A stretch of DNA of 17,196 nt, from the UHGV virus genome UHGV-0071544; one strand, written 5' to 3'. This stretch comes from a virus. The notes beneath the pieces are model-generated. The model made no database searches, was not told the DNA's origin, and saw only the letters and a list, made by a program, of their open reading frames with translations. A program made the translations under genes and the position numbers. This document shows, in pieces, positions 327-859 of this stretch (its first letter is position 1; the number at the start of each line of letters is the position of its first letter).

Positions 327-342
327 CCCCTTCATTGAGGGG
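327..342 (-). promoter_or_regulatory. Short hairpin (CCCCT-N6-AGGGG) overlapping the holin ribosome-binding site
   Basis: 5-bp inverted repeat whose 3' arm on the mRNA strand is the SD-like AGGGG just upstream of holin ATG 320. Confidence 0.3.
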
Positions 343-441
343 ATTTGCTCTATTTAATTAGGAATAAGGTCGATTACTGATAGAACAAATCCAGGCTACT
401 GTGTTTAGTAATCAGATTTGTTCGTGACCGATATGCACGGG

Positions 442-477
442 CAAAACGGCAGGATGTTGTTAGCGCGACCTCCTGCC
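442..477 (-). terminator. Candidate intrinsic terminator (tR'-like) between late promoter region and holin
   Basis: Minus strand reads GGCAGGA, a 16-nt loop, TCCTGCC, then GTTTTG; 7-bp GC-rich stem but only a short U-run, so weak. Confidence 0.3.
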
Positions 478-564
478 ACCCGCTTTCACGAAGGTCATGT
501 GTAGAAGTCCGCAGCGTAACTATCACTGATGAATTCAGGATAGCCAGTGGCTACGGCTCAGTTT

Positions 565-694
565 GGGTTGTGGCGGCCGGAATCGAACCGGCTTCCATCG
601 GTGCGCTGCCGATTGCAGTACGCGCGGCGGTCAGCTACATGACTAGTATTTTCACTGTCGCCTATCTGCTAGCTCGCCATTGAGCTTCACCACA
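565..694 (-). ncRNA. tRNA-like element (T-arm consensus plus acceptor-like and D-arm-like segments); too long for a canonical tRNA
   Basis: Minus strand contains GCCGG-TTCGATT-CCGGC (T-stem/loop consensus, plus-strand 579-589 ggaatcgaacc) followed by CGCCACA. About 120 nt upstream lies TGTGGTG (pairs with the putative 3' acceptor) then AGCTC-AATGGC-GAGCT (D-arm-like). There is no CCA directly after the acceptor and about 55 extra nt in the middle. Confidence 0.3.
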
Positions 695-859
695 ACGATA
701 AGAGCACTGCGCGGCACCTTTCACCAATTCCGCGAGGTCTGCGGGTTCAATGCTCTTACCTGTTGTGCAAACAAAAAAAGCCACCGTTGCAACTTAAGAG
801 TCACTAACGGCAGCTTATGCGAATAGTGTTGCTCATTTGCTCAATGATGTCAACACGTT

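Follow-up and report, generated by a model that had tools for sequence, protein, structure and literature searches.

In the 17,196-nucleotide (nt) stretch of viral DNA analysed here (virus genome UHGV-0071544, hereafter the window), positions 567-696 of the minus strand, between the gene for a Q late antiterminator and a holin gene, encode a conserved structured RNA and not a decayed transfer RNA (tRNA). This RNA is a member of a tRNA-like family of enterobacterial phages, here called family 1, for which we found no prior description in the literature or in Rfam. It belongs among the tRNA-like non-coding RNAs (ncRNAs) and is not a categorically new kind. In the window it is the cargo of a conserved leader scaffold made up of a CACAAC box, a hairpin that we term module A, and a closing stem.

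Structure and conservation of the tRNA-like RNA

Folding of the minus-strand transcript, a check proposed in an earlier note on this DNA, produced a multi-arm cloverleaf. In a single-sequence fold, a 136-nt stretch reached -50.8 kcal/mol with z = -2.9, and none of 200 shuffled sequences was as stable. The 130-nt RNA at 567-696 is defined by this minimum free energy (MFE) fold, by covariation, by RNAalifold and by R1, a covariance model of family 1 built in this analysis, with which the window element scores 167 bits. All parts lie on the minus strand. An acceptor-like closing stem of 9 bp pairs GUUGUGGUG at 696-688 with CGCCACAAC at 575-567, and encloses a D-arm (AGCUC-AAUGGC-GAGCU, 686-671), an extra arm of about 55 nt (669-615), a hairpin with a 5-bp stem and a 7-nt loop in the anticodon-arm position (hairpin H, AUCGG-CAGCGCA-CCGAU, 613-597) and a T-arm (GCCGG-UUCGAUU-CCGGC, 592-576). 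The sequence CCA follows directly 3' of the closing stem at 564-566. The earlier note had picked out the T-arm, the acceptor-like CGCCACA, a complementary TGTGGTG and the D-arm motif, all of which are where it placed them. The pairing it proposed for the acceptor-like strand is real, except that the stem has 9 bp and not 7. It was also right that 130 nt is too long for a canonical tRNA, and wrong that no CCA is encoded, as one stands at 566-564 immediately after the stem.

Conservation was assessed by aligning 61 distinct phage and prophage variants, to which all variant counts below refer. The IMG/VR members of this set were selected with a pattern of 21 bases, so that part of hairpin H and of the T-arm is fixed by construction. 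The five-arm structure was 95.3% paired, compared with 30-45% when partners were slid by 1-3 columns. Changes on both sides were seen in 17 pairs, and the observed covariation score was reached by none of 500 shuffles. Compensatory changes occurred in every variable helix, including those of the extra arm, the 9-bp length of the closing stem was itself backed by covariation, and RNAalifold returned the same helices when no structure was supplied. G.U pairs were frequent (for example U.G in 26 of the 61 variants at pair 20-137) and would be C.A on the opposite strand, indicating that the minus-strand RNA is the selected molecule. The earlier note had described the gap as free of open reading frames (ORFs). 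Mechanical ORFs of 40-50 amino acids do overlap it, but single-base insertions and deletions among close variants make it unlikely that the element is coding.

The tRNA elbow is intact, with a T-arm that has the canonical 5-bp stem and UUCRANY loop. G18 and G19 of the D-loop (AAUGGC), and U54, U55, C56 and A58 of the T-loop, are invariant, and this bears out the suggestion of a tRNA-like structure within the pR' leader. A canonical tRNA has four arms, a 7-bp acceptor stem, U8 and a length of 73-93 nt, from which the body of this molecule departs in its 9-bp stem, in A at position 8, in its length and in its fifth arm. Hairpin H lies 4 nt ahead of the T-arm, precisely at the anticodon-arm site, and R1 aligns it with the anticodon arm encoded by an Aeromonas phage tRNA-like gene. 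Its stem and the loop bases CGCA are invariant. However, the loop CAGCGCA has A33 and C37 where U33 and a purine at 37 are canonical, with U33 present in only one variant, and these two positions make it unfit for decoding. Hairpin H resembles the anticodon arm of E. coli tRNA-Arg(ACG), CUCGG-CUACGAA-CCGAG, a tRNA sequence that we verified. TadA and ArgRS were considered as targets of hairpin H and rejected on inspection, since the A34/U33 or A20 that their identity rules require is missing.

The extra arm has a covarying base helix (GCAG/CUGC, GUGU/ACAC, GGG/CCC), an invariant internal loop (AAUAG / GCGCGUA), a covarying inner helix and a 20-nt apical loop. Without this arm, the RNA measures about 75 nt and has all four tRNA arms, so that the element is most simply a tRNA that gained an insertion at position 26 and lost its decoding features. 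A tertiary pairing between CGC of the hairpin H loop and GCG of the internal loop was tried and set aside, as CGC never varies in true members and offers no variation to test. A search of IMG/VR for family members with altered CGC gave five matches, all due to chance.

The apical loop of the extra arm contains a 6-nt palindrome, ACUAGU in the window (642-647, minus strand), which is self-complementary in all 61 variants despite taking six forms: ACUAGU, UCUAGA, UCGCGA, UCUGGA (with G.U), ACCGGU and GCUAGC. The outer pair is AU in 30 variants, UA in 30 and GC in one, and the central pair is UA in 44, GC in 13, UG in three and CG in one. Such a hexamer cannot fold on itself, and neither CUAG nor CGCG, both invariant in other parts of the molecule, covaries with it; both observations fit a pairing of one RNA copy with another. 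This suggests that the palindrome is a candidate kissing-loop site that would mediate homodimerisation. The dimerisation site (DIS) of human immunodeficiency virus 1 (HIV-1) is a self-complementary kissing-loop site, and it shares with the phage RNA a 6-nt apical-loop palindrome that changes only where self-complementarity is kept. It differs in that the loop here has 20 nt and belongs to a phage ncRNA, whose dimerisation is predicted from sequence.

Searches for known RNA classes placed the element in none of them. ARAGORN called no tRNA or transfer-messenger RNA (tmRNA) gene in the window and never called the element in 67 related loci. The Rfam tRNA covariance model gave no match even at E <= 10, Rfam 15 gave no family at gathering thresholds over the whole window, and relaxed Rfam scans of the region and its counterpart in phage CUS-3 returned nothing relevant and otherwise noise. 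Within these relaxed limits (E <= 10), the match of the Rfam tmRNA model was confined to the 17-nt T-arm and scored 10 bits, where the gathering score is 47, which together with the absence of an ARAGORN tmRNA call excludes the element from that class. The earlier note had held that the lack of any tRNA or Rfam match, together with the lack of a conserved structure among homologous Q-S regions, would speak against its proposal. The first of these is what we found, whereas the structure is strongly conserved. Literature searches, including searches with exact sequence strings, found no description of the element. In RefSeq, 175 of 5426 complete E. coli genomes carry it, all as chromosomal copies, and it is unannotated there. 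Annotations that do overlap family members are spurious: a 'polyubiquitin-A' coding sequence in ON470589 and ON470594, a 58-nt 'tRNA-Ser' over the 3' part only in phage vB_CECAV_048 (PQ186186; our locus L156:472-529), and small hypothetical ORFs with assigned ribosome-binding sites in phage Skate (MH321493, L004).

The leader scaffold and its cargoes

The region is bounded upstream by the Q gene (860-1348; PF06530 Phage_antitermQ, E = 8.8e-25), which is the same Q as that of phage JEP4, and downstream by the holin gene (117-320; PF16080, E = 4.4e-21), both on the minus strand, as are all features of the region. The pR' late promoter region (825-853, with TTGACA at 853-848) was placed by alignment to the annotated promoters of Sf6 and HK75 and was not called by a simple promoter scan. 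It is followed by the tR' terminator (774-815), a hairpin and U-run (GCAACGGUGGCUUUUUUU) near-identical to tR' as annotated in the same two phages. The tRNA-like element therefore lies downstream of tR', within a lambda-type late leader. Between tR' and the element are the CACAAC 5' box (762-767), a direct repeat of the 3' strand of the closing stem, and module A (697-760), an inverted repeat that folds as a hairpin with the base GGUAAGAGCAUUG / CAGUGCUCUUAUC and a variable apical part.

Downstream of the CCA, positions 321-563 up to the holin start are near-identical to the lambda leader upstream of S, and hold three further structures. The first is a hairpin with stems at 448-457 and 468-477, kept from lambda to the window, whose counterpart carries a compensatory change in CUS-3 and JEP4 (GGCAUGAGGUU / AACCUCAUGCC). 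The earlier note had proposed a terminator at 442-477. The hairpin is conserved, but only GUUUUG follows it at 447-442 and a terminator scan did not call it; it is possibly among the tandem late terminators described for lambda. The second is the 9-bp inverted repeat (423-383) noticed previously, whose arms at 383-391 and 415-423 are indeed 100% complementary. The third, CCCCUCAAUGAAGGGG at 327-342, lies directly upstream of the holin start codon. Its positional counterpart in lambda, CCCCUUAUUGGGGG, keeps the stem and has a different loop, ahead of a holin of another family.

The scaffold itself is shared with lambda. Window positions 767-564 match lambda 44788-44944 (L163:339-495) in all four scaffold features, namely the CACAAC box, the GGUAAGAGCA/UGCUCUU hairpin base, the GUUGUG...CACAAC stem and the lambda S leader that follows. 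Right after tR', the lambda late leader thus has the box, module A and a 9-bp closing stem (GUUGUGCUG...CAGCACAAC), which differs from that of the window by a compensatory change (GUG/CGC in the window, CUG/CAG in lambda). The alignment of window and lambda as a whole had a mean column identity of 91%. The lambda closing stem holds a different cargo of about 65 nt that is not tRNA-like. We know of no function assigned to this stretch of the lambda late leader.

Other phages carry other cargoes in the same position. In JEP4 (L128:505-625), HK629 (L129 ~420-545), CUS-3 (L003 ~1118-1352), ep3 (L154 ~968-1112) and Aeromonas phage 62AhydR11PP (L130 ~1500-1735), the same closing stem, here UUGUGGUG...CCACAA, encloses a second tRNA-like family. 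Its members have a D-like hairpin with the loop GGCUGA and a T-like hairpin with the loop (A)GUUCAGC(A); these loops are complementary (GCUGA:UCAGC), the stems covary between phages, and the interior ranges from about 60 to about 200 nt. In the Salmonella phage LPSTLL (L155:~968-1060), a box, module A and closing stem of the type found in Skate-like phages hold an AU-rich cargo that is not tRNA-like, a third kind of cassette content. Sf6 has real tRNA-Asn and tRNA-Thr genes in this slot. In 62AhydR11PP, an unannotated tRNA-like gene with the anticodon loop CUGUUAA (Asn GUU) was found at L130:1954-2042, in the same 680-nt non-coding gap as the family-2 RNA; it scores 27.9 bits with R1.

Because it repeats the 3' strand of the closing stem, the box is able to pair with GUUGUG at 696-691. 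The box and the 3' strand therefore compete for one 5' strand, giving two exclusive folds: S1, with the tRNA-like structure closed, and S2, in which the paired box lengthens module A into a helix of 19-20 bp (in the window 19 bp interrupted by one bulged A, in the variant L076 an unbroken 20 bp). S1 is favoured by just 3 kcal/mol (-78.7 versus -75.6), and as the transcript grows, S2 has the lowest free energy until the final 10 nt have been made. Compensatory variants of module A were found in three loci (L076, L033 and L016). Across 22 distinct scaffolds, pairing of the box helix reached 97.7%, its changes including wobbles and two double changes, and the competition between S1 and S2 is also present in the lambda late leader.

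Genomic contexts of the family

BLAST searches identified a 140-nt unit as a discrete module in unrelated phages at 73-100% identity. Identity was 97-100% in HK75 and its relatives, 93-96% in the siphoviruses Skate, seszw and Akira, 81% in ST1UNAM, 79% in Pantoea phage PdC23 and 73% in the P22-like BIS08P22. A pattern scan of IMG/VR yielded at least 120 contigs with at least 70 distinct variants. A scan of GTDB, with one genome per species, gave 21 pattern matches of which only five were real, and four of these five were Enterobacterales or an identical phage contig within a metagenome-assembled genome (MAG). One copy identical to that of the window was on a 9.7-kb contig of a 'Cellvibrionaceae MAG' (JAUVQU010000080.1, L137), which is most likely an enterobacterial phage contig that was mis-binned.

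At least five genomic contexts were found for the family. Its 126 copies are of two main types, A-type (89 copies, the window included) and N-type (31 copies). A-type copies have the CACAAC box and module A upstream, and most lie between Q and the lysis genes, after tR', with Q proteins of at least two unrelated families (PF06530 and PF03589). The same composite lies in antisense orientation between the tail genes of Skate-like phages and, in other cases, between portal and terminase genes; in PdC23 it is found in an 800-nt non-coding gap. In Skate, a promoter-like site (TTGACA-17-TAGATT) is directed into the element, which thus looks like a self-contained unit, and a tRNA-Ile follows on the same strand.

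N-type copies have neither box nor module A. They are situated in the N leader past nutL, with a cI-like repressor gene before them and an N-type antiterminator gene immediately downstream. Their closing stem consists of 9 plus about 10 covarying base pairs with one bulged A, forming a 19-bp duplex. In one of them (L009), the flanks are those of the lambda N leader (nutL boxA and boxB, GCUUUGGGGUGUG..., ...CACACCACCAAAGCUAACUG and the N start), and the element substitutes for the interior of the lambda N-leader hairpin. In N-leader copies, the start of the pL transcript seemed to pair with the closing stem; this was dismissed as an MFE artefact, since by the pL start site of lambda most of this N-leader 'box' falls upstream of +1.

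We checked the ORF clusters beside all 126 copies, and in every annotated neighbourhood read there was no int gene or att site beside the element. The suggestion that the element is the remnant of a tRNA-targeting integration event is not consistent with this, nor with an element that is complete and covarying and has RNA-specific G.U pairs. A gene for an HNH_3 homing endonuclease lies directly upstream of tR' and the scaffold in HK629 (L129:1-295) and in 14 IMG/VR loci (cluster C2), and downstream of N in BIS08P22; such genes may be relevant to movement of the cassette. In one further locus (L082:8690-8785), a short tRNA-like RNA with a T-arm (GGUUCGAUUCC) and the same extended outer stem precedes a family-1 copy in tandem, at a distance of about 130 nt. 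ARAGORN found no tRNA in L010, which shares the upstream outer-stem strand with L082; L082 itself was not scanned.

Possible functions and relation to known systems

The explanation we favour, and to which we give an even chance, is that window 567-696 (minus strand) is a tRNA-derived structured ncRNA that is excised from its leader and acts in trans as a tRNA mimic. The RNA would be cut from the leader transcript by RNase III acting on the long duplexes (S2 in the window, the 19-bp extended stem in N-leader copies), and possibly by RNase P acting on the tRNA-like fold, to leave a stable RNA of about 130-150 nt. In the predicted folds both kinds of duplex, at 19-20 bp and 19 bp, are of RNase III size, close to the roughly 20 bp of almost uninterrupted duplex expected of a substrate. 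Sites of RNase III processing have been recorded in vivo for the late leader of lambda (Daniels et al. 1988, ref 49 of PMC7547250). The released RNA could then pair with a second copy through its palindromic loop and act on a tRNA-binding host or defence factor. The sole lead to such a target is the likeness of hairpin H to the tRNA-Arg anticodon arm. As an 'RNA moron' of this kind, the tRNA shape would serve processing and stability and not decoding.

Several observations weigh against this explanation. RNase P and EF-Tu measure a 12-bp acceptor/T stack, whereas the stack here has 14 bp and position 8 is A, not U. Every copy has the elbow, and in the window, PdC23 and L046 the stem is followed by CCA; CCA is however missing in several clades, including the Skate-type copies, and the 'ACCA' of N-leader copies is better read as bulge and stem. 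Unrelated cargo occupies the same scaffold in other phages, lambda included, so the scaffold may be more important than what it carries. Members of the family were found in Enterobacterales only, a narrow range, and with an effective sequence number of 1.2 the covariation counts are partly inflated by shared descent, yet the slid controls keep this relatedness and still lose most pairing. Everything beyond a conserved structured RNA on this strand is what we infer from sequence.

The main rival, which is possible although we consider it unlikely, is a purely cis-acting processing or insulation module, in which the fold and duplexes would recruit RNase P and RNase III, uncouple the downstream mRNA and set its stability or translation. 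This would fit the position of the element behind tR' or nutL, in the leaders of operons under antitermination, and the L009 copy in particular, which occupies the place of the lambda N-leader hairpin, reportedly an RNase III site controlling N translation. It would also fit a cargo that is interchangeable between phages in the same scaffold, and an S1/S2 competition that is kept in lambda. On the other hand, a cleavage signal needs no invariant hairpin H loop, no invariant internal loop and no covarying palindrome. The same cargo is moreover kept at 73-95% identity across unrelated contexts. In Skate-like phages it is antisense to structural genes, has its own promoter-like site and has no downstream gene to regulate.

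Returning to the excised tRNA mimic that we prefer, a more elaborate version of it is doubtful when taken as a whole. Here the scaffold (box, hairpin, closing stem and RNase III-type duplexes) would be a leader-embedded 'RNA cassette holder' with swapped RNAs, common to enterobacterial phages including lambda, and the window cargo would be a homodimer with specificity-coded kissing loops that serves as decoy or inhibitor of a tRNA-directed host factor. As part of this same doubtful proposal, hairpin H would point to an anticodon nuclease or modification enzyme specific for tRNA-Arg. If true, the decoy would represent RNA-only genes of a new class, serving counter-defence or host takeover ('RNA morons').

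It is improbable that the two folds form a conformational switch or attenuator, in which S2 versus S1 would sense polymerase speed, Q modification, a tRNA-binding factor or a ligand and so control read-through or processing before the lysis genes. The folds are exclusive and nearly iso-energetic, S2 prevails as long as the transcript lacks its last 10 nt, the 22 scaffolds and lambda all preserve the box helix, and a terminator-like hairpin lies downstream at 477-448. However, a direct repeat of any stem strand gives such competition automatically, and N-leader copies dispense with both box and module A. No output domain is evident, as the downstream hairpin is without a proper U-run, and terminators are in any case ignored by Q-modified polymerase.

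A role at the level of DNA, either as a 'boundary sequence' where recombination gives mosaic exchange or as a palindrome bound by protein, is very improbable. The CUS-3 annotation by Casjens does mark 'boundary sequences' (bsq3 and bsq4) in the Q-S interval, phage homology breaks exactly at the closing-stem strands, and CACAAC direct repeats flank the cassette. Against this, G.U pairs and strand-specific compensatory changes fit an RNA, the interior is conserved as a folded unit, and a 6-bp palindrome is too short for a typical dimeric site, its sequence being free to vary. Integron attC-like core sites were also considered for the CACAAC/GTTGTG repeats and were rejected on inspection, as they do not fit the consensus.

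Two readings as a tRNA are hardly credible. The degenerate or pseudogenised phage tRNA, or tRNA-targeting integration scar, offered by the earlier note would agree with a tRNA-derived element that ARAGORN and Rfam fail to call and that lies in the slot of real tRNA genes in Sf6, L, BTP1 and Oslo (PMC8022706). It cannot readily account for strong structural selection, with 95% of alignment cells paired and compensatory changes in every variable helix, for an added arm that is conserved and covaries, or for recurrence in at least five unrelated contexts (none of those read beside int or att), in 175 of the 5426 complete E. coli genomes and on at least 120 IMG/VR contigs. A working decoding tRNA of odd shape, such as a tRNA-Arg with an extra arm or a removable intron, is just as hard to credit. 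It would explain the four arms within about 75 nt once the extra arm is removed, the 5-bp stem and 7-nt loop of hairpin H with GCG or UCG (Arg anticodons) at positions 34-36, the CCA after the stem in the window and the tRNA-Ser label over the 3' 58 nt in the GenBank record of vB_CECAV_048. It is contradicted by A33 in all but one variant, C37, A8 and the 9-bp acceptor stem, and by the silence of ARAGORN (none of 67 loci) and of the Rfam tRNA model at E <= 10. To our knowledge, no bacterial splicing is known for an insertion at position 26.

These results mean that a stretch of the well-studied early and late leaders of lambdoid phages has been left unannotated or mis-annotated although it is conserved. 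R1 would let annotators label several hundred phage and prophage loci. The element is a target for work on RNA-based phage-host conflict, on dimerisation and on RNA excision from antiterminated transcripts, and the lambda scaffold with its two competing folds offers a testable role in a standard laboratory phage.

Among known systems, the tRNA genes of lambdoid late operons (Asn/Thr in Sf6, Asn/Leu in phage L, and the 933W type; PMC8022706) share slot, strand and the T-arm/D-loop elbow with the element and are probably its evolutionary source. They differ from it in its 130-nt length, 9-bp stem, 55-nt extra arm and A8, and in its lack of U33 and of a purine at 37. Other ncRNAs arise from the pR' leader region of lambdoid prophages, namely StxS and PasD/STnc100 (PMC7547250; bioRxiv 10.64898/2026.05.13.724894). 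StxS is a short RNA ending at tR', and the Pas small RNAs are Hfq-bound, some with 3' intrinsic terminators. The element, in contrast, is located past tR', has the shape of a tRNA and lacks its own terminator.

The lambda N-leader hairpin between nutL and N has the same flanks as the N-leader copies of the family, which keep an outer helix of about 19 bp with a bulged A, whereas the window copy lies in the late leader. This hairpin is reportedly an RNase III site that modulates translation of N. Its interior was tried as a distant homologue and rejected as unrelated, since the R1 score of 8.8 bits (E = 0.025, with filters off over 1.7 kb) was not accepted as a match. The C4 RNA of P1/P7 is likewise a small RNA within a phage operon leader and is said to be freed from it by RNase P through a tRNA-like acceptor and CCA. 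However, the element has no Rfam C4 match, and C4 has neither T-arm nor D-arm and base-pairs with its own mRNA, a kind of target that is not evident here. The M3 RNA of phi80, considered as a lambdoid RNase P substrate and possible relative, proved to be the annotated oop homologue, and phi80 has no family member.

Closest in spirit is YrlA, a tRNA-mimicking bacterial Y RNA that is bound by Ro60/Rsr, is in some cases cut by RNase P and given CCA, and is also found in phages (PMC4201824). Both are non-decoding ncRNAs that copy the D-arm, T-arm and elbow of tRNA. YrlA is circularly permuted (T-arm, closed 'acceptor' loop, D-arm), has its ends on the anticodon side and a Ro-binding helix, and is encoded beside rsr, whereas the phage element keeps the tRNA order, has open ends at the acceptor stem and is flanked by Q and the holin gene, with no rsr nearby. 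The element thus adds to the short list of bacterial tRNA-like ncRNAs, alongside tmRNA and YrlA.

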